Source: Alphaproteobacteria bacterium (lineage in GTDB: Bacteria > Pseudomonadota > Alphaproteobacteria > Rs-D84). From it: a stretch of 64,000 bases of DNA. Position 1 is the first letter of the stretch, and every line of letters begins with the position of its first letter. The notes under the pieces are model-generated. The model ran no database searches. It saw only the letters and a program-made list of their open reading frames with translations, and was not told where the DNA came from. A program made the position numbers and the translations under genes. The DNA is taken from NCBI GenBank assembly GCA_031555055.1, contig JAVBUT010000006.1, forward strand, positions 3,886 to 67,885, given 5' to 3'. This document shows positions 3,614-61,746 of this stretch, piece by piece.

Positions 3614-4204
3614 TTATTCAAGCCGTTCGTTAAACTCTTCAATTTGTTTTTGGTATAATACATCCGCATCCCAAGTTTGCGGATTCGTAAATATATACCC
3701 GCGGATATTTTCATAATCCGCCGTATCACGAATGATGTGTTCATAATAATTCCGTTGCCAGATCGAATGTCCGACTTGTTTTGATACCCCCGCCTTGAAC
3801 CCACGGATTACTGAACTTAAAGACCTGGAGTATCCATAAGCCTTGGGTGTAGGGGCAGGTATCACCTGCCCTGTCGGTTGCTGTGCAACCGATATGATCG
3901 GGCGGATGATATCCGCCCCTACGTTCACAGGCTCTATTAATTCGATAATAAAATGTATATGATTGGGCATCACTATAAACTCATGAATCTTCACCTGGTT
4001 ATCACAATATTTCGGTATATCGATTAACTTTTGGCGGACAATCTCGCCATATTTGTTCAATTGCATTTCGCCGTTAATAATTCGGCCGAATATACATTTT
4101 TTATCCAATGTGCAAATGGTTATAAAATACAAATCCGGTGACGAATAATCGTAACCGGATAAACGAATTGATCGACGATGGTGAACGGTTTTATCATATG
4201 GCAT
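3614..4204 (-). CDS. REP-associated tyrosine transposase (RAYT, IS200/IS605 Y1 family)
   Basis: N-terminus HHRRSIRLSGYDYSSPDLYFITICT. HUH motif in MPNHIHFIIEL. Catalytic Tyr region WQRNYYEHIIRD. Flanked on both sides by REP hairpins (3584-3606, 4229-4250). Confidence 0.85.
   Translation of the reverse strand: MPYDKTVHHRRSIRLSGYDYSSPDLYFITICTLDKKCIFGRIINGEMQLNKYGEIVRQKLIDIPKYCDNQVKIHEFIVMPNHIHFIIELIEPVNVGADIIRPIISVAQQPTGQVIPAPTPKAYGYSRSLSSVIRGFKAGVSKQVGHSIWQRNYYEHIIRDTADYENIRGYIFTNPQTWDADVLYQKQIEEFNERLE
3849..3922. repeat. inverted REP doublet inside the RAYT ORF
   Basis: GTAGGGGCAGGTATCACCTGCCC and GGGCGGATGATATCCGCCCCTAC flank a CGGTTGC-TGT-GCAACCG hairpin. Translated as ..NVGADIIRPIISVAQQPTGQVIPAPTP.. 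between the HUH and Tyr motifs. Confidence 0.8.
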
Positions 4205-4228
4205 GACGGGATTATATCACACAATATT

Positions 4229-4250
4229 GGGCGCGTTTCGGACTGCGCCC
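4229..4250. repeat. REP hairpin GGGCGCGTTTCGGACTGCGCCC
   Basis: The same variant recurs at 37841-37866 (opposite orientation) and 38014-38039. Confidence 0.8.
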
Positions 4251-4260
4251 ATACACGATT

Positions 4261-5724
4261 TTACTTTTTCTTGGTATCTTTTTTATCGTCTTTCTTTTCT
4301 TCTTTCTTGGGCGAATTTACATTCGCCCCTATGTCTTCTTTTTTATCTGTCGCGGAATCGTCTTTGGTGATTGGTTTTTTCTCGGCCATTTTTGCCATGG
4401 CGCGAACCATATCCATACCGCGTTGCAACTGATAATCCAATGCTTCTTTTTCTTCATCGGTCAATTTGGACCAGTCTTCATCATCGCTGTCCTTGTCTTT
4501 TTTCTTGTCGTCGCTGTCTTCGTTTTTCAGCGCGTTTTTAAATGTCGCTTCGGAATATGCGCTGTGCTTTTTCTCCAGCACTTCGACCTTGGACTGTAAT
4601 ACTTCGACGTCCGGCGTTATGCCTTCGCCCTGGATCGATTTGCCCGACGGAGTATAATATCGCGCGATTGTGATATGTATCGCGGTGCCATCCCCCAGCG
4701 GTTTTTGCTGTTGCACACTGCCCTTGCCGAAACTTTGCGATCCCATGACGATTCCGCGGTTGTTATCTTGGATCGCGCCGGCGACGATTTCAGACGCGGA
4801 TGCGGACCCATGATTGATCAGAACGACCACGGGTTTGCCATGCGCCAGATCGCCCGGCGTCGCGAACACACGATCAACGTCGTTTTTGTTTTTTCCGCGC
4901 GTCGATACGATTTCGCCACTGTCCAGAAAAGCGTCGGACACATCGATCGCCGCGGTCAGATACCCGCCCGGGTTATTTCGCACATCAACGACATAGCCGA
5001 TGACTTTCTTTTTTTCCAGCGCGTTTATCGCGTCGCGGATTTCTTTGGTTGTTGTCGCGCCGAAATCGGAAATGCGGATATAGCCGATTTTGCCGGCCCC
5101 AGACGAATCTTTGTCTGCATCTGGATCGCCTTTTTCCTCATACTTTACGGATTTGACTTTGATGATCGCGCGTTTCAGCGTCAGCGTGCGTGGCTCTTTC
5201 CCTTCGGTTATGACGGTCAGTTTCACTTTGGTTCCCGGCCGGCCCTTCATTTTCTTGACCGCCTGGTTCAGTGTCAGATCGAAAACCGGTTCGTCATCGA
5301 TATGCGTGATATAGTCGCCGGCCTTGATCCCAGCCTTTTCAGCCGGCGTATCGTCGATGGGCGAAATGACTTTCACGGCGCCCTGGTCACTGGTTATCTG
5401 AATCCCCAGCCCGCCGAATTCGCCGGTGGATTTATCGTTAAAGTCCTTGAAATCATCGGCCGGCAGATACGAAGAATGCGGGTCCAGTGCGCCCAGCATA
5501 CCGTTCATCGCCGCTTCCAGCATCTTTTTTTCGTCGGCTTCTTCGACAAAGCTGTCACGGGCGGTTTCAAACACCAGTGCCAGTTTTTTCAGTTCTTCGT
5601 AAATTTGGGCGTCGGTCAGATGCACGACCGGCTCTTCTTTTTTCTTTTTGTCAGGCGCGGCGAACCCAGCCATCGGCAAGGCCATCGCCAAAATCATCAA
5701 TATAACAAATATCTTTTTGAACAT
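4261..5724 (-). CDS. ctpA: carboxy-terminal processing protease (S41) with Lys/Asp-rich C-terminal tail
   Basis: Signal peptide MFKKIFVILMILAMALPMAGFA, starting at internal ATG 5724 with GGAAGG RBS. PDZ-like GIKAGDYITHIDDEPV. S41 Ser region INHGSASASEIVAGAIQD and SFGKGSVQ. Confidence 0.9.
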   Translation of the reverse strand: MFKKIFVILMILAMALPMAGFAAPDKKKKEEPVVHLTDAQIYEELKKLALVFETARDSFVEEADEKKMLEAAMNGMLGALDPHSSYLPADDFKDFNDKSTGEFGGLGIQITSDQGAVKVISPIDDTPAEKAGIKAGDYITHIDDEPVFDLTLNQAVKKMKGRPGTKVKLTVITEGKEPRTLTLKRAIIKVKSVKYEEKGDPDADKDSSGAGKIGYIRISDFGATTTKEIRDAINALEKKKVIGYVVDVRNNPGGYLTAAIDVSDAFLDSGEIVSTRGKNKNDVDRVFATPGDLAHGKPVVVLINHGSASASEIVAGAIQDNNRGIVMGSQSFGKGSVQQQKPLGDGTAIHITIARYYTPSGKSIQGEGITPDVEVLQSKVEVLEKKHSAYSEATFKNALKNEDSDDKKKDKDSDDEDWSKLTDEEKEALDYQLQRGMDMVRAMAKMAEKKPITKDDSATDKKEDIGANVNSPKKEEKKDDKKDTKKK

Positions 5725-22558: not shown

Positions 22559-22892
22559 CGCCAATTTTCACCGAAGCGAAGCAAGGGCTGAAAATTGAGC
22601 GTCACGGCGTAGCGCAGCGAAGACGGATGGTAGACACATTTTTATTGCGAGTATGGCGGAATTGGTAGACGCGCTGCCTTGAGGTGGCAGTGGAGCAATC
22701 CATAGGAGTTCGAGTCTCCTTACTCGCACCATATTTATTCATACATCTATGTTATCGGGATTTTATCCATCGCCGTCATACCGGCGAACGCCGGTAACCA
22801 GCAGTATGAAATTTAGTTTTAATAATACTGGACCCCGGCCTACGCCGGGGCGCTCAATTTTCAGCCCTCGCTACGCTCGGTGAAAATTGGCG
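22559..22892. mobile_element. insert bounded by inverted 42/43-nt hairpin repeats and carrying the intact tRNA-Leu
   Basis: CGCCAATTTTCACCGAAGCGAAGCAAGGGCTGAAAATTGAGCG (22559-22601) matches the reverse complement of 22851-22892 with 1 indel and 2 mismatches. Each arm is itself a CAATTTTCA/TGAAAATTG hairpin. Confidence 0.5.
22647..22731 (+). tRNA. tRNA-Leu (anticodon GAG), class II with long variable arm, encoded CCA
   Basis: Hand fold: GCGAGTA/TACTCGC acceptor, GCG-GAATTGGTAGA-CGC D arm, CTGCC-TTGAGGT-GGCAG anticodon arm, AGGAG-TTCGAGT-CTCCT T arm, then A-CCA. Confidence 0.93.
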
Positions 22893-23008
22893 ACTGGTAG
22901 ACGCGCAGGCTTGAGGTGCTTGTGAAGAAATTCGTATGGGTCCGAGTCCCATTAACCCCACCAGGCTTCGCCCGACCATTGACTATTGACTAATATCTAA
23001 CTTTCCCC

Positions 23009-31524: not shown

Positions 31525-31592
31525 AGTTTTCTCCTTTTGTGTTGAACGGACCTGATCGTATCAAATTTAGAAAAAAGCGCAAGTAAAAAATA

Positions 31593-31738
31593 GGAATCAG
31601 TTATTAGGAATCAGGAATCAGGAATTAGTAGGGGCGCATATTTGCGCCCTCTTTATTTTTGACTGGATTGCCACGTCGCTGACGCTCCTCGCAAAGACGG
31701 ATTTGTGCTTAATCGCTGATTCCTATCGACTGATTCCT
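31593..31738. repeat. composite element: GGAATCA heptamers, GTAG-REP, TGACTGGATTGC...GACGGATTTGT unit, inverted CTGATTCC
   Basis: Read directly. The REP plus TTTATTTTTGACTGGATTGC unit recurs at 43267-43345. Confidence 0.75.
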
Positions 31739-32980
31739 TTACAACATCTGGCGCGCCACCGGCAGAGTGATTCCGTGCTGTTCGCACGCACGTTCCAAAA
31801 ACTTTTTCAGCACATCCAGCGTCAGCGGTAATTTATGCAGCCTGTTTAAATACGGCGCGGCGCATTCGTCGCAAACGGCGCGTCCGGTCTTTGGCGACAG
31901 ATAATTCAAGCTATCTTTCTTGCCGCACCCGGAACAGCGCGACATATCCAAAGCATATCCCAAATCCGCCAGAAAATTTATTTCCCACGAAAGATACAGA
32001 TTTTTTTTATCATCCTGACTCTGTCGCGTCTCCCCCTGCTTGCGGGGGGAGTGGTCGCAAAGCGACCGAGGGGGGTGATTATCAATAACTTCTTTGGGAT
32101 AAAAATTCTGCAATGGTGGGATTTCATTTTCATGCGTTAAATAATAGTAAATATTATCCAGAACATTTTGCAAGTCCCTGATCACAGCGTCATTCCAAAA
32201 ACGAATTGTGCGATATCCGGAATCCTGCAAGAATTTATCGCGCACAGCATCGTGATAAATTTGTTGTTGTTCTCCATGATGTTCACCATCTAATTCAACG
32301 ATTAATTTTGTTTTTCTGTTTACAAAATCCGCAATATAGTTTCCGATCGGCATCTGTTTTACAAAATCAAACCCGCCGTTTGATCCGCTTAAATTTTTCC
32401 ACAGAATCGCTTCGTGTTTTGTTAGGTTTTTCCGTAATGATTTTGCAAAGACTTGTGCCTGGGGCGCACAACGGTTCACCCCCCTCGCCCACTCTGTGGG
32501 CGCTCCCCCCGCAAGCGGGGTGAGACGTGCTTTTGGTCCAAGCATATCAAACACTCCGTCGCATCTCCCCCCGCTTGCGGGGGGAGTGGTCGCAAAGCGA
32601 CCGAGGGGGGTGACAGCCAAACTGTGCAGTAAATTTTTCGTGCGTATAAACAGTGTCTCGTACTTTTCGCGTTCCGGCAATAATGCCGCGATCAGTGCGA
32701 ACATCGAATTCATTATCCCCAGCGTCCGCGGGTCAGACATCAGCGGCGCAGCCATGTTTTTTTCCGCTTCCCAGTGAAACGCCCCCAGTTGCGAATCCAG
32801 TCGCGCGTTCCATGACACGCCACCCACCTGGCCCACCAGCGGTTTGTTTTTCCGGGCAACTTGGGCACCCGTCAGCATGCCGGTCATGACGCCATAATCA
32901 TGTGTAAAAATCACGCCGATCGAATCGCGTTCGCCGAACGGCCGCAAAGCAATCAAAATTCCCGTCGATTCCAGTTTCAT
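31739..32980 (-). CDS. recO: DNA repair protein RecO carrying a 199-codon in-frame insertion
   Basis: N-terminal OB fold MKLESTGILIALRPFGERD. C-terminal Zn finger MSRCSGCG...YLSPKTGRAVCDEC. The two halves are separated by 32018-32614 (see the mobile_element feature). Confidence 0.8.
   Translation of the reverse strand: MKLESTGILIALRPFGERDSIGVIFTHDYGVMTGMLTGAQVARKNKPLVGQVGGVSWNARLDSQLGAFHWEAEKNMAAPLMSDPRTLGIMNSMFALIAALLPEREKYETLFIRTKNLLHSLAVTPLGRFATTPPASGGRCDGVFDMLGPKARLTPLAGGAPTEWARGVNRCAPQAQVFAKSLRKNLTKHEAILWKNLSGSNGGFDFVKQMPIGNYIADFVNRKTKLIVELDGEHHGEQQQIYHDAVRDKFLQDSGYRTIRFWNDAVIRDLQNVLDNIYYYLTHENEIPPLQNFYPKEVIDNHPPRSLCDHSPRKQGETRQSQDDKKNLYLSWEINFLADLGYALDMSRCSGCGKKDSLNYLSPKTGRAVCDECAAPYLNRLHKLPLTLDVLKKFLERACEQHGITLPVARQML
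32018..32614 (-). mobile_element. DUF559 (Vsr-like endonuclease fold) module flanked by GC-rich palindromic elements, translated in frame inside recO
   Basis: Core LRKNLTKHEAILWKNL...GNYIADFVNRKTKLIVELDGEHHGEQQQIYHDAVRDKFLQDSGYRTIRFWNDAV is the DUF559 pattern. It is bounded by copies of TCxCCCCGCTTGCGGGGGGAG-hairpin-GAGGGGGGTGA at 32019-32082, 32476-32527 (inverted) and 32556-32614. Length 597 bp, or 199 codons. Confidence 0.65.
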
Positions 32981-33001
32981 AGGATAAAGTATACAGCAAA
33001 T

Positions 33002-33030
33002 AAAAAAATCCCGCAACGCGGGATTTTTTT
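33002..33030. terminator. AAAAAAATCCCGCAACGCGGGATTTTTTT hairpin, copy 1 (3' of the orphan gene, upstream of recO)
   Basis: The 29-bp core is identical to 34061-34090. Confidence 0.7.
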
Positions 33031-33973
33031 ATTTAATTTTACCACTGTGTATTATTTTTGCAAATGCGCATTTTTTATGAACATTGGCGATATTCATATC
33101 CTGTAATAATTTACAATTTATACAATCGCCTAAAAATTGCTTATTGTCATTTTCACTTAACGATTTACCAAATGATATTTGTTCAGATTTTAGGCCTCTT
33201 TTACCACCATGTTCTAAGTTCCATCGCACAACTGCAGGTTCGATATATTCCGGATCAGAAACCGACATTCTGCAGAAAAATTCTTTCAATGTAAAATTTT
33301 TTATTTTCACCGCACCATTTTTTTCTGAAACCATTCCTGATTTACGCAAAGACTCAGCCAAACGATCTGCAGAACTTTCAGCCTTATAGCAATAGCATGT
33401 TAATAATGCATATATTGCGGCCGCACGATCCATTGATACACGTTCTGTAATTTTTGTTGGTGACAATTTGCCCCAGCTAAAAATCTTTGCATTAAAGTCG
33501 CGTTTCGCATCGTTTTCAGTTTTACCAACACCACGAAAATCTATATCATTATTACCATTAGCTTCGCATACAAAGATTTTGTTTTGTGATAGGCTGCCGT
33601 CCTTAAATTCAAACTCATAAGCCTGATACAGCATTTTTTTATTTTTTGCCTGCGCATCATAAGTCTCTTGCGGCGCCAGATAGGCCCGTTTATAACTATT
33701 TGACGAAGATTTTATAACTATATACTTGTATTGAATATTATTAATAACAACTGCTTCTAAATTACCTGCGCGATTTTCTGCACTCCACCAGCCAGACATA
33801 ATAACACGAGAGCCAGCTGGTATAACTATTTTTCTTAATTTATCGCCACAATGACAATCATTATCAAAAAAATACTTAACATTATCCGGGATAACTAAAA
33901 CCCCATCACTTGTCAAATCATCATCCCATACGCGTAAACTAGTGCTGCCGCCACCATCTTTATCTATGTGCAT
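33029..33973 (-). CDS. hypothetical 314-aa protein, AT-rich orphan cassette gene
   Basis: Intact ORF with TTGACT-N16-TACAAT promoter and AAGGAT RBS. The N-terminus (VLVIPDNVKYF...LRKIVIPAGSRVI) is faintly like BspA-type LRR units. No signal peptide. Confidence 0.6.
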   Translation of the reverse strand: MHIDKDGGGSTSLRVWDDDLTSDGVLVIPDNVKYFFDNDCHCGDKLRKIVIPAGSRVIMSGWWSAENRAGNLEAVVINNIQYKYIVIKSSSNSYKRAYLAPQETYDAQAKNKKMLYQAYEFEFKDGSLSQNKIFVCEANGNNDIDFRGVGKTENDAKRDFNAKIFSWGKLSPTKITERVSMDRAAAIYALLTCYCYKAESSADRLAESLRKSGMVSEKNGAVKIKNFTLKEFFCRMSVSDPEYIEPAVVRWNLEHGGKRGLKSEQISFGKSLSENDNKQFLGDCINCKLLQDMNIANVHKKCAFAKIIHSGKIK

Positions 33974-37808: not shown

Positions 37809-38074
37809 GAATCAGAATTTTAGGAATCAGGAATCAGTAGGGGCGCAGTCCGAAACGCGCCCCTACGCACCGTCGCGTCTCACCCCGCTTGCGGGGGGAG
37901 TCCGTCCGCAGGACGGGAGGGGGGTGATATACGATTTGCGCCCCTACGATTTATGTTTACAAGAAAAAAGGGCGCAAATATGCGCCCCTACAAATTTCGG
38001 TTCACGAGAACAAGGGCGCGTTTCGGACTGCGCCCCTACTGATTCCTGATTCCTAATTCCTGATTCCTGATTCC
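37808..38074. repeat. composite BIME-like element: GGAATCA heptamers, four REP units, a GC-rich double-hairpin element, inverted CTGATTCC heptamers
   Basis: REP units at 37837-37866, about 37937-37947 (half unit), 37970-37991 and 38014-38039. TCACCCCGCTTGCGGGGGGAG..GAGGGGGGTGA element at 37871-37930. Heptamer arms at 37808-37836 and 38040-38074. Confidence 0.8.
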
Positions 38075-53566: not shown

Positions 53567-53613
53567 ATCCCGAAAAGCATAGAAAATTTTGAACCAATGG
53601 GCAAGAAAAAAAA

Positions 53614-53689
53614 GGAATCAGGAATTAGGAATCAGGAATCAGTAGGGGCGCGTGGAAACGCGCCCTGGGCGAATTCCCATTCGCCCCTA
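53614..53689. repeat. GGAATCA heptamers plus two REPs in the nrdR/ccrM divergent region
   Basis: GTAGGGGCGCGTGGAAACGCGCCCT and GGGCGAATTCCCATTCGCCCCTAT. Confidence 0.75.
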
Positions 53690-54934: not shown

Positions 54935-55669
54935 TTAGTTAAAAAAAGAAAATATATACGGTGCAACGTCATCGGTCATCGCAAAATCCGCACATGCACC
55001 AGGACAGTCCTTTCCACAGTTGCTAAGTGTTCCAATAATCGGTGCCAATATCCAGTAACCGTTTGTCGCATCTATTTTTCTTTTTGCACGGCACCAACAA
55101 TACCCCCCACCCCAGCTATATGTTGGCGTACCTATGCGTGTCTCTGGATCGTCCATCTGATTTTTAGTACTGCACATTGCCTGGATATAATAGTACGGAT
55201 AAACATTTGCCTGTCTCAGCCTTTCCTCTAGATCGGTCGAAATTGTCACCGAAGTTATAGTATAGTTCGGATGCAATGCATTAAATTCTGACGAGTATGT
55301 ATAAATCTCTGAATAATCATCTATGGCCAATTGCAAATACGGATCACCATCGGATAAAGACACCAAAGAATCAATCGTACCGATCACAGCATTCGTGTCG
55401 ACAACCTGTTGCGACGCCAGCGCATTGTCGCAATATCTGACCGCCGGTAATTCCGAATTCAGCTCTTGATTAACAACATCGACCGTGCACAACAGATACT
55501 TCATATTGGCGGCCTGGGTTTGCAAAGGATTGGCAATATTTATATTTACCGAATGCTTTTGATTTATGTAATCGTGAATGTATTTAACATTGGCGATCTG
55601 CGCGGCAATCACGTCCGACGAAACACAAAGCACTCCAAAAAACACTGATAAACAAAACCTTGTCATCAT
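54935..55669 (-). CDS. secreted protein with CWCRAKRK motif, paralog A
   Basis: Signal peptide. N-terminal QIANVKYIHDYINQKHSVNINIANPLQTQAANMKYLLC. C-terminal GGGYCWCRAKRK...CGKDCPGAC. Confidence 0.7.
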   Translation of the reverse strand: MMTRFCLSVFFGVLCVSSDVIAAQIANVKYIHDYINQKHSVNINIANPLQTQAANMKYLLCTVDVVNQELNSELPAVRYCDNALASQQVVDTNAVIGTIDSLVSLSDGDPYLQLAIDDYSEIYTYSSEFNALHPNYTITSVTISTDLEERLRQANVYPYYYIQAMCSTKNQMDDPETRIGTPTYSWGGGYCWCRAKRKIDATNGYWILAPIIGTLSNCGKDCPGACADFAMTDDVAPYIFSFFN

Positions 55670-55693: not shown

Positions 55694-56443
55694 TTATGGA
55701 TTAATCCATGGTTCGAAAACCGCAATCATAAAATCCTGATTCGTTGTCACAGCGTTTACGCATACCGTACCGCAATTTTTTGCACACGCCGTGGAATCAG
55801 GTGCATTAAGATTGTACGAATATATCCAATCACTGTTCTGGGCGTTTGCTTTTCTTTTTGCCCTGCACCAACAAAATGTTCCTTGGCCAAAAGACTCCGA
55901 AAGACCCGGTTCCCCATAGCTTCCAAACTCATTGGTGCATATTGATTGTACATAATAGCCGGGATATATACCAGCGAACTCCAAGTCCTCTTCTTTCACC
56001 GGATCAATTGTTACCGTCTGGGATAAATAGGTCGGATGCAATGCGTTAAATTCTGACGAATACGTATAAACACCCGGATAATCTGCCAACGCCAAGTGCA
56101 AATACGGATCACCACTGCCGGACAACGATACCAAAGAATCAATCGCGCCAACCACTGCGGTCGTATCAACAGCCTGTTGCAACGCCAGCGCATGGTCGCA
56201 ATATCTGACTGTCGGTGGCGCACCATTCAGTTCTTGGTTCACAAGATCAACCATGCACAACAGGTATTTCATATTGGCGGCCTGGGTTTGCAAAGGATTG
56301 GCGATATTTATATTTACCGAATGCTTTTGATTTATGTAATCGTGAATGTATTTAACATTTGCGATCTGTCCGGCGCCCGCGTTTATCGAAACACAAAGCA
56401 CCCCGCAAACAATCAACAGGCAAACTATTCTTGGCATTGTCAT
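55694..56443 (-). CDS. secreted protein with CWCRAKRK motif, paralog B
   Basis: Same N-terminal block, nearly identical at the DNA level. GTFCWCRAKRK...CAKNCGTVC. Confidence 0.7.
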   Translation of the reverse strand: MTMPRIVCLLIVCGVLCVSINAGAGQIANVKYIHDYINQKHSVNINIANPLQTQAANMKYLLCMVDLVNQELNGAPPTVRYCDHALALQQAVDTTAVVGAIDSLVSLSGSGDPYLHLALADYPGVYTYSSEFNALHPTYLSQTVTIDPVKEEDLEFAGIYPGYYVQSICTNEFGSYGEPGLSESFGQGTFCWCRAKRKANAQNSDWIYSYNLNAPDSTACAKNCGTVCVNAVTTNQDFMIAVFEPWINP

Positions 56444-56452
56444 CTAAACCTT

Positions 56453-57436
56453 TTAAGGTGTCGGCAAAGTCGGCGTCGGCACATTCAAAATTCCAACCAT
56501 TGAGTAAGTACCGGCAGTTGTCAAAACAGCGTTTGCTGGGGTCGGACCCGTTTCTCCCTGGGGGCCTTGCGAACCAGTGGCGCCTGTTTCACCTTGGATG
56601 CCCTGGATACCTTGCTCGCCCTGTTCACCCCTTTCACCTTGGATACCTTGTTCACCCGGGATACCTTGCGGACCGACAGCACCAGTGTCACCTTTTGGAC
56701 CCGCGGGACCTGTTGCACCAGCAGGACCAACTTCACCCTGGGGGCCGGTCAAACCAATCGGCCCGATCGGTCCAACTGGTCCTATTTCACCTTGTGGACC
56801 CTGGGGACCTACCTCACCTTGTTCACCCCTTTCTCCTTGGATACCTTGCTCGCCTGGGATACCTTGCGGACCGACAGCGCCTGTTTCACCCTGGGGGCCG
56901 GCTATACCTATACCCTGGGGACCAGCCGGTCCAGTAGCACCATCCAAACCAGCAGGACCAATTTCACCCTGGGGACCCGCTGGACCGGTCAGACCAATAG
57001 GGCCCTGGGGGCCAACAGGACCAATTTCGCCCTGGGGACCCGCTGGACCGACAGTATCAGAGACCATACCTTCGACTTCACTTTTCGTATAAACATCGGC
57101 GATATTCGCTTTGTTTGTATCCATTACATCTATACGGTTATCCAGCCGGCCTTCAACATTATCGACCCGCGTATTCGTCGCGTATTGTGACAAGTCCGCG
57201 CCTGTACCGCCTGTGGTGGAAATTCCTTTGCCACGCGAATTCAAAAACGATGTTGTGCTTAACCTGTTGGTTGCACTTGCGACATACGCCCCTGTGGGTT
57301 TTGGCACTGTACTGATCGTCACAGATTGTACTTTTGGCATGGGTATAGACCCACGAACTGTTGGTGTCGCACCAATCGCGTCCAGCGCAAAGAATATCGT
57401 AATTAGCACCGCAGTACTGCCTGATATTTTTCTCAT
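56453..57436 (-). CDS. collagen-like triple-helix repeat protein (secreted)
   Basis: Signal peptide. Tail-fibre-like N-terminal region ([18 protein letters not shown]). About 56 Gly-X-Y triplets ([29 protein letters not shown]...). Short C-terminal non-collagen segment. Confidence 0.85.
56543..57049. repeat. Gly-X-Y coding repeat region with a long internal duplication
   Basis: [24 protein letters not shown] occurs twice. All alternative-frame ORFs here are artefacts of the repeat. Confidence 0.85.
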
Positions 57437-61438: not shown

Positions 61439-61746
61439 GGGCGAATTCTTGCGCCCTTTGTTTCATGAATCGTAAATCGTAGGGGCGCGTGGAAACGCGC
61501 CCTTTGTTTCATGAATCGAAAATCGTAGGGGCGTGTGGAAACGCGCCCTTTGTTTCATGAATCGAAAATCGTAGGGGCGTGTGGAAACGCACCCAGGACA
61601 CATCCACCTTTGTTAAAACTTCGGTGGGCGCGTTTCCACGCGCCCCTACACTCTGTCGCGTCTCACCCCGCTTGCGGGGGGAGTGGTCGCAAAGCGACCG
61701 AGGGGGGTGATATACGATTTGCACCCCTATGATTTACGACTTACGA
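61439..61746. repeat. REP array: three tandem 46-bp units, an inverted REP and a GC-rich double-hairpin element
   Basis: CCCTTTGTTTCATGAATCG[TA]AAATCGTAGGGGCG[CT]GTGGAAACGCG repeats at 61454, 61500 and 61546. Inverted GGGCGCGTTTCCACGCGCCCCTAC at about 61626-61649. Double-hairpin element at 61651-61713. Confidence 0.85.

Follow-up and report, generated by a model that had tools for sequence, protein, structure and literature searches.

A DUF559 nuclease-fold cassette bounded by hairpin repeats lies in frame within an alphaproteobacterial recO gene

We analysed a 64,000-nt stretch of an alphaproteobacterial genome (GTDB lineage Rs-D84; NCBI assembly GCA_031555055.1, contig JAVBUT010000006.1, forward-strand positions 3,886 to 67,885), hereafter, the window. 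Its recO gene carries an in-frame insert of 597 nt, or 199 codons, in which a complete DUF559 domain lies between copies of a GC-rich double-hairpin repeat. An initial annotation, made from the sequence alone, had reported this in-frame insert, and the observation is confirmed here. We conclude that the insert is probably a nested copy of a small selfish nuclease element, comparable to the REPtrons formed by repetitive extragenic palindromic (REP) sequences and their associated enzyme gene, and that it is tolerated in a surface loop of RecO.

The gene is a single uninterrupted minus-strand open reading frame (ORF), as the initial annotation had described it, and the ORF list extends it over 31739-33016 when read from the first possible start. 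Because its homologs all begin with MKLES, we place the start at the ATG at 32980, which gives a product of 413 residues. Pfam recognizes RecO_N at residues 2-66, DUF559 at 177-282, and RecO_C at 323-402; RecO_C scores 67.5 bits against a cutoff of 22.1, and RecO_N, at 24.3 bits, falls slightly below its cutoff of 27 (PF02565 and PF11967). The RecO equivalog model (TIGR00613, NCBIfam) matches at 76.7 bits, above its cutoff of 48.7, and identifies the protein as RecO. An OB fold, a helical domain, and a four-cysteine zinc finger are all present in the predicted structure (Foldseek matches to 3q8d, 1w3s, and 1u5k, E ~1e-7), and the cysteines of the finger, together with 50 other columns, are invariant in a 20-sequence RecO alignment (A2). 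The synteny of dsbA and rplI around recO agrees with that of related contigs. Between recO and rplI lies a 314-residue minus-strand ORF (33029-33973) without a Pfam match, in a position where related contigs have two small unannotated ORFs; its GC content, about 35% against 48% for the window, suggests that it may be foreign.

We fixed the insertion point by comparison with L010, the nearest ortholog without an insert, which comes from a metagenome-assembled genome of a termite-gut alphaproteobacterium; L010 matches the window gene codon for codon up to ...SLA and resumes at QDDKKN.... Deleting the insert leaves a linker of 13 residues, and the L010 linker is also 13 residues long; the coordinates given in the initial annotation, 32018-32614, are therefore exact. 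We modelled the full recO product with AlphaFold2 (AF2) on a 134-sequence alignment, and the model has a mean predicted local distance difference test (pLDDT) score of 84. The two RecO parts (residues 1-126 and 317-413) and DUF559 (168-290) are modelled at high confidence (pLDDT >90), and the element-encoded stretches (127-166 and 301-316) fall below 50. Thus both folds are predicted to be intact and the two linkers to be disordered, and the model has no predicted interface between RecO and DUF559. The insert site lies between a helix of the helical domain (residues 108-122) and the helix upstream of the zinc finger (318-339). The initial annotation had put the insert between the OB fold and the zinc finger; the site is upstream of the finger, but the insert does not directly separate the two, and the helical domain intervenes.

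Along the coding strand, the insert is made up of one repeat copy (E1), a spacer of about 24 nt, an inverted copy (E2), the DUF559 core with a C-terminal extension, and a third copy (E3), so that element copies stand at both ends and one is inverted, much as the initial annotation had them (Table 1). E2 and E3 form inverted repeats of 52 nt with 81% complementarity, and the inner hairpin of E2 differs in sequence.

Table 1. Features of recO, of its insert, and of the related repeats, numbered from the first nucleotide of the window.
Feature	Position	Strand	Evidence or remark
recO coding sequence, 413 aa plus stop	31739..32980	-	ORF list, Pfam, TIGR00613, MKLES start of homologs
RecO N-terminal part, OB fold and first helices, residues 1-122	32615..32980	-	AF2 pLDDT >90; Foldseek to 3q8d, 1w3s, 1u5k
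RecO C-terminal part with zinc finger C349, C352, C370, C373	31739..32017	-	alignment A2; AF2 pLDDT >90
Composite in-frame insert, 597 nt, 199 codons	32018..32614	-	codon alignment to insert-free L010; insert lengths in 112 RecO homologs
E1, GC-rich double-hairpin repeat, translated VTPLGRFATTPPASGGRCDGV	32553..32614	-	direct repeat of E3, 94%
Spacer E1-E2, about 24 nt, translated FDMLGPKA	32528..32552	-	not in insert-free ortholog L010
E2, in opposite orientation to E1 and E3; left inverted repeat of the DUF559 unit	32476..32527	-	81-82% complementary
DUF559 domain (Vsr-like PD-(D/E)XK nuclease fold), complete	32138..32455	-	Pfam PF04480, PDB 3hrl, Foldseek, AF2
C-terminal extension specific to subtype A, THENEIPPLQNFYPKEVIDN	32080..32137	-	conserved in RecO, MnmE, and QueA copies
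E3, right inverted repeat of the DUF559 unit, translated HPPRSLCDHSPRKQGETRQS	32018..32079	-	reading frame unlike that of E1
Free-standing intergenic element copy, inner hairpin of different sequence	37867..37928	+	repeat comparison
Free-standing intergenic element copy, 97% identical to E3	61650..61711	+	repeat comparison
Partial element copy, head and first hairpin only	49408..49436	+	motif and repeat comparison

The domain between E2 and E3 belongs to DUF559. It scores 106 bits against a cutoff of 20.6 (PF04480, E 1.2e-30) and covers profile positions 4-108 of 109, in agreement with the initial annotation, which had called the core complete. It matches PDB entry 3hrl both in sequence (E 3e-16) and in fold (Foldseek TM score 0.88), and the model also resembles I-Bth0305I, a homing endonuclease, in its catalytic domain (TM score 0.79). 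The family motif, composed of the D in ADF, E-x-D-G-x-x-H, and RFWN, is present in the window copy, invariant in the four subtype A cores compared below, and kept in 22 of 23 aligned nested copies, the exception being the divergent P0007. We predict that the domain is a nuclease. An in-frame GTG (32476-32478, minus strand) stands directly after the G-run of E2, and several free-standing DUF559 genes have their start codon within a few bases of a G-run; initiation at this GTG would yield a product of DUF559 plus the RecO C-terminal part. The MnmE and QueA copies do not conserve this codon.

The flanking element is built of four parts: a CGTC head, a hairpin with C-run and G-run arms, a second hairpin of variable sequence, and a terminal G-run. 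Folding of the DNA recovers both hairpins. Five full copies and one partial copy occur in the window, three of them within recO, as is characteristic of intragenic palindromic repeats. The core motif has 11 matches where 0.53 are expected, a number reached in none of 100 shuffles. The initial annotation had noted free-standing copies near 37871 and 61651, and both are full copies that lie between ORFs. CGTC precedes the stem CTC(A/C)CCCC / GGGGGGAG in four of the five window copies, is replaced by CATC in E1, and reads CCTC in L003. The compensatory changes that the initial annotation had seen in the inner hairpins are borne out by pairs counted directly on fixed-length hairpins: the sequence varies while pairing is kept in 56 of 56 cells (eight elements, six loci), and both sides have changed at five of seven pair positions, a value that an arm-swap permutation reaches in 0.0002 of trials. 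A T·G wobble closes the variable hairpin (position 1-17) in six of the eight elements (window elements, L001, L002, L007, and L090). Vsr-type nucleases act on T/G mismatches, and for that reason the wobble could, speculatively, be a recognition feature of the DUF559 nuclease. The element pattern of the window had no match in a set of species-representative genomes that does not include the source genome. A low-threshold Rfam match to MIR4239 at 32488-32600, which scored 44 bits where the gathering score is 100, was set aside, as it reflects only the E2/E1 inverted pair.

Most relatives of this RecO lack the insert. Besides an NCBI protein identical to that of the window, a protein search recovered nine RecO-DUF559 proteins at 43-53% overall identity and roughly 100 RecO proteins of the ordinary kind. 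Neither the window protein nor P0001, the sequence that stands for it in the comparisons below, is listed in the contig index under exact look-up. Fewer than 10 residues occupy the insert site in 93 of 112 RecO homologs; ten have 161-244 residues there, DUF559 included, with the frame open across all of them, and a few have 20-67 residues of purely repeat-derived peptide. Likewise, among 80 recO loci from gut Alphaproteobacteria in species-representative genomes ('Candidatus Enterousia' and unnamed relatives, many of them metagenome-assembled from termite guts), 78 are of the short form and two of the long form. The same RecO-DUF559 architecture appears in independent assemblies held in ENA, JGI, NCBI, and Logan.

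The DUF559 domains carried by RecO are of at least four subtypes, with mutual identities of 30-57%, all in the same loop, and their similarities do not follow those of their hosts. The window protein (P0001) shares 66.8% of its RecO core and 43% of its DUF559 with P0003, and 61.1% and 73%, respectively, with P0002. In a bootstrapped neighbor-joining tree, the two RecO proteins with subtype A fall into separate subclades; with support of 65-68%, the tree is suggestive rather than decisive. The initial annotation had reasoned that an ancestral fusion would be indicated if orthologous RecO proteins of unrelated lineages shared the domain at one position. Such a pattern is seen only superficially, as the RecO-DUF559 proteins come from related termite-gut lineages, are patchily distributed, and bear differing DUF559 subtypes.

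The build of the window insert recurs in L004, of subtype C, in which an element, a spacer, an inverted element, DUF559, and an element follow one another; at the same spot L006 has a solo element without DUF559. The two loci look like the expected outcome of recombination between direct element copies, by which a cassette would integrate or excise. A JGI contig of 1372 nt (P0114) consists of a single ORF that joins a fragment of the LigA OB domain, repeats, DUF559, and the RecO C-terminal half. It is either a chimeric assembly over near-identical ligA and recO cassettes or a real recombination of cassettes, and under either reading its genome would hold several similar cassettes.

The cassette is not confined to recO. 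Subtype A cores, with 64-82% amino acid identity, lie in frame in RecO (window and L001), MnmE (L002), QueA (L003, L087, L090, and L091, from four genomes), and a RuvX fragment (P0142) of related termite-gut Alphaproteobacteria. The initial annotation had proposed a search for DUF559 copies with the same flanks, and these exist: in MnmE and QueA, as in the window, the core stands between inverted element copies, and the L087 QueA has an identical 29-nt inner hairpin at both cassette ends. The MnmE copy shares 81-82% with the QueA copies, which share 71-80% with each other, in host proteins that are 68-70% identical; the cassette copies do not group by host gene. Diverged cassettes also recur at the same sites in RecO, QueA, QueH, and between ureB and ureC. 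A simple terminal-inverted-repeat transposon was rejected as a model, because element orientation differs between loci; the age of the copies also speaks against it. Target-site duplications, sought at the MnmE and QueA junctions, were not convincingly found there. The L087 QueA (3707-5620) has, besides the DUF559 cassette near its N-terminus, in-frame element-only inserts downstream, such as ...PPHKGAGAAERPRGGPGSDSEQAPPP... and ...PPPPKMGETRW....

Four subtype A cores were compared codon by codon, over 125 codons each and without a single indel. The proportion of nonsynonymous differences (pN) between copies is 0.11-0.21, and that of synonymous differences (pS) is 0.75-0.83. Saturated synonymous change beside low nonsynonymous change shows purifying selection on the cores. 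Each core is poorer in GC than its host gene in all four genomes (34-41% against 49-55%), and in the window the GC content at third codon positions (GC3) is 0.33 in the core and 0.56 in the host gene.

A word-indexed search with the DUF559 core alone gave 26 candidates and missed known relatives, so HMMER was run exhaustively on 1.84 billion cluster representatives instead; it found 4620 DUF559 relatives at E <=1e-10. Among the best 150, about 35 are long and carry DUF559 internally. Pfam scans of 30 long proteins show the domain nested in at least 15 unrelated host families, among them LplA/B, RecF, QueH, HsdS, M14 peptidase, O-methyltransferase, Ham1, HydF, ThiE, YkuD, GNAT, HolC, Sua5, Mur ligase, another RecO, and DNA methyltransferases, and the host domain is often found in two halves around it. 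Most flanks are rich in proline and glycine (e.g., PPQGGS, SPLEGES, PPLRGS), as would be expected of translated C-run/G-run hairpins.

The association with the repeat extends to DUF559 genes that stand alone. In all ten free-standing loci that we inspected, an element of the same build adjoins the DUF559 gene, directly upstream in nine, with its G-run usually near the start codon; the tenth, from Rufibacter (L092), has both element copies downstream. The others come from two metagenomic genomes (L093 and L096, between ureB and ureC), two metagenomic contigs (L094, beside a recQ-like gene, and L095, between yebC and ruvB), Sinorhizobium meliloti (L097, plasmid pSymB), Neisseria gonorrhoeae (L098), Azospirillum lipoferum (L099, a plasmid), Sphingomonas parapaucimobilis (L100, between pntAA and pntAB), and the cyanobacterium Picosynechococcus PCC 7002 (L101, plasmid pAQ6). 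At least seven of the ten have an inverted element copy at or after the 3' end of the gene, 41 nt long at 95% in L093 and 24-30 nt and exact in L096, L097, and L099, and the Sphingomonas element has the double-hairpin build of those in the window. C-run/G-run hairpins number 7.13 per kb within 150 nt of DUF559 and 0.051 per kb elsewhere in about 646 kb, with some loci duplicates of one another. The free-standing genes of L093, L096, L100, and L092 (the last between moxR and a DUF58 gene) each occupy the gap between neighboring genes of a conserved operon and lie on its strand, a habit shared by free-standing homing endonuclease genes of phages.

Known systems resemble this one in part. Di Nocera et al. 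(2013; PMC3733652) sorted REPs into GTAG- and CGTC-tagged superfamilies, of which the latter, by their account, are mainly alphaproteobacterial, include the Rickettsia palindromic elements (RPEs) RPE-4 and RPE-6 and the Neisseria dRS3 repeats, often lie within replication and repair genes, and 'apparently lack a dedicated transposase'. The class is marked by an unpaired CGTC, TGTC, or CCTC head beside a stem of 8-9 bp; the elements described here share with it the CGTC or CCTC head, an 8-bp stem, and a frequently intragenic position. However, CGTC-tagged REPs open their stem with two A/T pairs and have a loop of 4-5 nt and a CCA tail, whereas the stems of the window elements begin with C-G and then T-A (CT..AG), and a second hairpin and a G-run are present where the CCA tail is absent. 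On account of this stem composition, second hairpin, and G-run, we do not file them under the CGTC superfamily. The initial annotation's analogy with RPEs is nonetheless apt, for the flanking elements behave as intragenic REPs and RPEs do: these too are short palindromic sequences, present in several copies per genome, that lie in frame within genes as a tolerated peptide, and RPE insertions often hit DNA-repair genes (PMC3733652), much as E1, E2, and E3 do here, E1 with its 63 nt or 21 codons. RPEs and REPs contain no protein domain, in contrast to the window repeats, which bracket a complete nuclease domain that is translated with its host.

A further likeness is to the REPtron, in which the gene for a REP-associated tyrosine transposase (RAYT) accompanies GTAG-type REPs (PMC3733652). 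In both cases the gene for a DNA-cleaving enzyme lies between inverted hairpin repeats, solo copies of the repeat are dispersed, and each enzyme lineage has its own repeat variant. We found the arrangement of an enzyme gene between inverted repeats in the window, in L002, L003, and L087, and in the free-standing L093, L096, L097, L099, and L100. The enzyme is not a RAYT (an HUH Y1 transposase), as DUF559 is the only domain between the repeats; the system here differs from a REPtron in its Vsr-like PD-(D/E)XK nuclease, its CGTC-type head, its C-run/G-run stems, and a unit that may sit in frame within genes. EDxHD homing endonucleases such as I-Bth0305I, which have the Vsr-like fold (PMC2677866, PMC3239194), and inteins are likewise selfish inserts at conserved sites of housekeeping and repair genes, with variants that recur at each site; unlike them, the present insert has no intron or intein to remove it, and its sites are flanked by repeats. 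The ShiLan insertion in a phage DNA methylase is a nuclease-bearing insert that likewise leaves the frame open without a splicing domain and should, by prediction, protrude from its host as a loop, but its nuclease is of the HNH type and lies out of the host frame (PMC11855218), whereas the one described here is a PD-(D/E)XK enzyme in the host frame, bounded by hairpins, in cellular genomes. A search of the accessible literature, in which few subscription journals are covered, found no link of DUF559 to repeats or to nested insertion, and an earlier description is possible.

With the sum of these observations, we propose that the element unit is a DUF559 gene bounded by inverted GC-rich hairpin repeats, and that in recO the unit E2-DUF559-E3, with the extra direct repeat copy E1, would have settled in a naturally variable surface loop. 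Having neither a start nor a stop codon of its own, the unit would be translated as part of RecO, and because the repeat-encoded stretches are predicted to form disordered linkers, RecO would fold normally with the nuclease domain hanging off. Selection on the element, and not on any function of RecO, would keep the nuclease intact. Its most likely activity would be to nick or cut the hairpin repeats, or target sites that bear them, and recombination between repeat copies would then move or restore the cassette, a mode of action that resembles REPtrons and homing endonuclease genes yet involves no splicing. The initial annotation's proposal that a mobile DUF559 cassette had landed in recO with the frame intact is supported by the recurrence in other genes, the incongruence with the hosts, and the patchy distribution. 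Of the two outcomes it had offered, a RecO-nuclease fusion or a tolerated loop, we favor the tolerated surface loop over a functional fusion, because enzymes of tRNA modification and of metabolism also house the cassette and because disorder is predicted for the linkers.

Several points weigh against the proposal of a mobile nuclease element. Its mobility is something we infer, and a PD-(D/E)XK domain of about 110 residues is not known to transpose alone. The saturated synonymous sites imply that the cassette copies in different genomes are old, and the 64-kb window has a single DUF559. The orientation of the flanking elements, forward (F) or reverse (R), varies from F-DUF559-R in MnmE and QueA to R-F-DUF559-R in the window and L004 and F-R-DUF559-F-R in L001, and in L007 and L008 the repeats are direct. 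The RecO subclades have modest bootstrap support (50-68%), and the sequences derive from metagenome assemblies.

Some of these points would fit a frozen fusion, that is, a single entry of DUF559 in the ancestor of the termite-gut clade, after which the domain was immobile, tolerated, inherited vertically, and lost in places. Such a history would accommodate the restriction of DUF559-bearing RecO to one broad RecO clade, the age of the copies, the lone DUF559 of the window, and the shared QueA insert site in four genomes with QueA proteins at 68-70% identity. We nevertheless regard it as unlikely, given four DUF559 subtypes in one loop, the incongruent similarities of RecO and DUF559, and subtype A copies in MnmE and QueA that are closer than the QueA copies are among themselves; moreover, element copies within the window are 94-97% identical, the GC3 of the core is still far below that of its host gene, and the nuclease motifs are under a purifying selection that a dead passenger would not need. 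Purifying selection on an intact domain would equally be expected had the nuclease been recruited to work with RecO in a bifunctional repair protein, for instance in the processing of recombination intermediates, and several of the hosts do act on DNA (RecO, RecF, RuvX, HolC, the LigA fragment, HsdS, and DNA methyltransferases). Yet the same subtype occurs in QueA and MnmE, other subtypes occur in QueH, LplA/B, ThiE, a Mur ligase, HydF, and peptidases, which have no link to DNA, the AF2 model predicts disordered linkers and no interface, and most RecO proteins of the clade do without DUF559; we hold such domestication to be distinctly improbable.

It is very improbable that the insert is removed, in the manner of an intein or an intron, before the mature protein forms. 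In-frame nuclease inserts in repair genes are typical of inteins, and EDxHD homing endonucleases of introns and inteins have the Vsr-like fold (PMC2677866, PMC3239194), but Pfam finds no Hint or intein domain in the recO product, and the junctions, between A and VTPL and between RQS and QDD, lack the Cys/Ser/Thr and His-Asn residues that inteins require. No intron family in Rfam matches the insert at the gathering score or at E <=1, and the frame is open across the 161-244-residue inserts of ten RecO proteins as well as in many other hosts. Still less credible, to the point of being nearly negligible, is a chimeric join through the repeats or another assembly or sequencing artefact. The window does come from a metagenome assembly, and the related short contig P0114 appears chimeric across the cassette; against this, both RecO halves are of one lineage, the dsbA and rplI synteny agrees with related contigs, the four independent sources of assemblies show the same architecture, and the insert is exactly in frame.

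Beyond recO, DUF559 might, tentatively, be the missing protein partner of a large class of C-run/G-run, CGTC-headed repeats, in a second REPtron-like system based on a Vsr-fold nuclease that would spread through bacteria both as genes wedged into operons and as in-frame, non-splicing domains of essential proteins such as RecO, QueA, and MnmE. DUF559 is a very large family of unknown function, and a link to a defined class of repeats would give it a role; it would at the same time be a candidate enzyme for REP-like elements that have been without one since 2013. The nested form would represent a third way of life for a nuclease-bearing selfish element within an essential gene: unlike inteins and introns it is not spliced, unlike insertion sequences it does not disrupt, and it persists as an additional domain held on disordered linkers that the repeats encode. 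There are practical consequences as well: annotation pipelines name such products 'RecO C-terminal domain-containing protein' or merge domains that are unrelated, the cassettes may give rise to chimeric assemblies, and they point out permissive loops, which could serve as a guide for domain-insertion engineering.

The window contains a second, unrelated class of repeats, GTAG-headed hairpins of the form GTAGGGGCGC...GCGCCCCTAC that often follow runs of GGAATCAG heptamers. They are intergenic (31588-31655, a short way downstream of recO; 37820-37862 / 38014-38056; 43352-43406; 46607-46661; and 53602-53665) and resemble classical REPs of the GTAG type. A tandem array (61451-61594) of three 46-nt units, 94-96% identical and each ending in a GTAGGGGCG...CGCCC hairpin, immediately precedes the solo GC-rich element at 61650. 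Elsewhere (56453-57436, 54935-55669, and 55694-56443), a gene for a collagen triple-helix repeat protein (Pfam Collagen, E 3e-27) adjoins two paralogous ORFs without a Pfam match, and the two paralogs have in common a 300-nt repeat with 82% identity. Finally, a 69-nt stretch is 75% identical to the tRNA at 22647-22728 and lies 232 nt downstream (22663-22731 compared with 22895-22963); Rfam does not list it at the gathering score, and it could be a second tRNA or a tRNA-like remnant.

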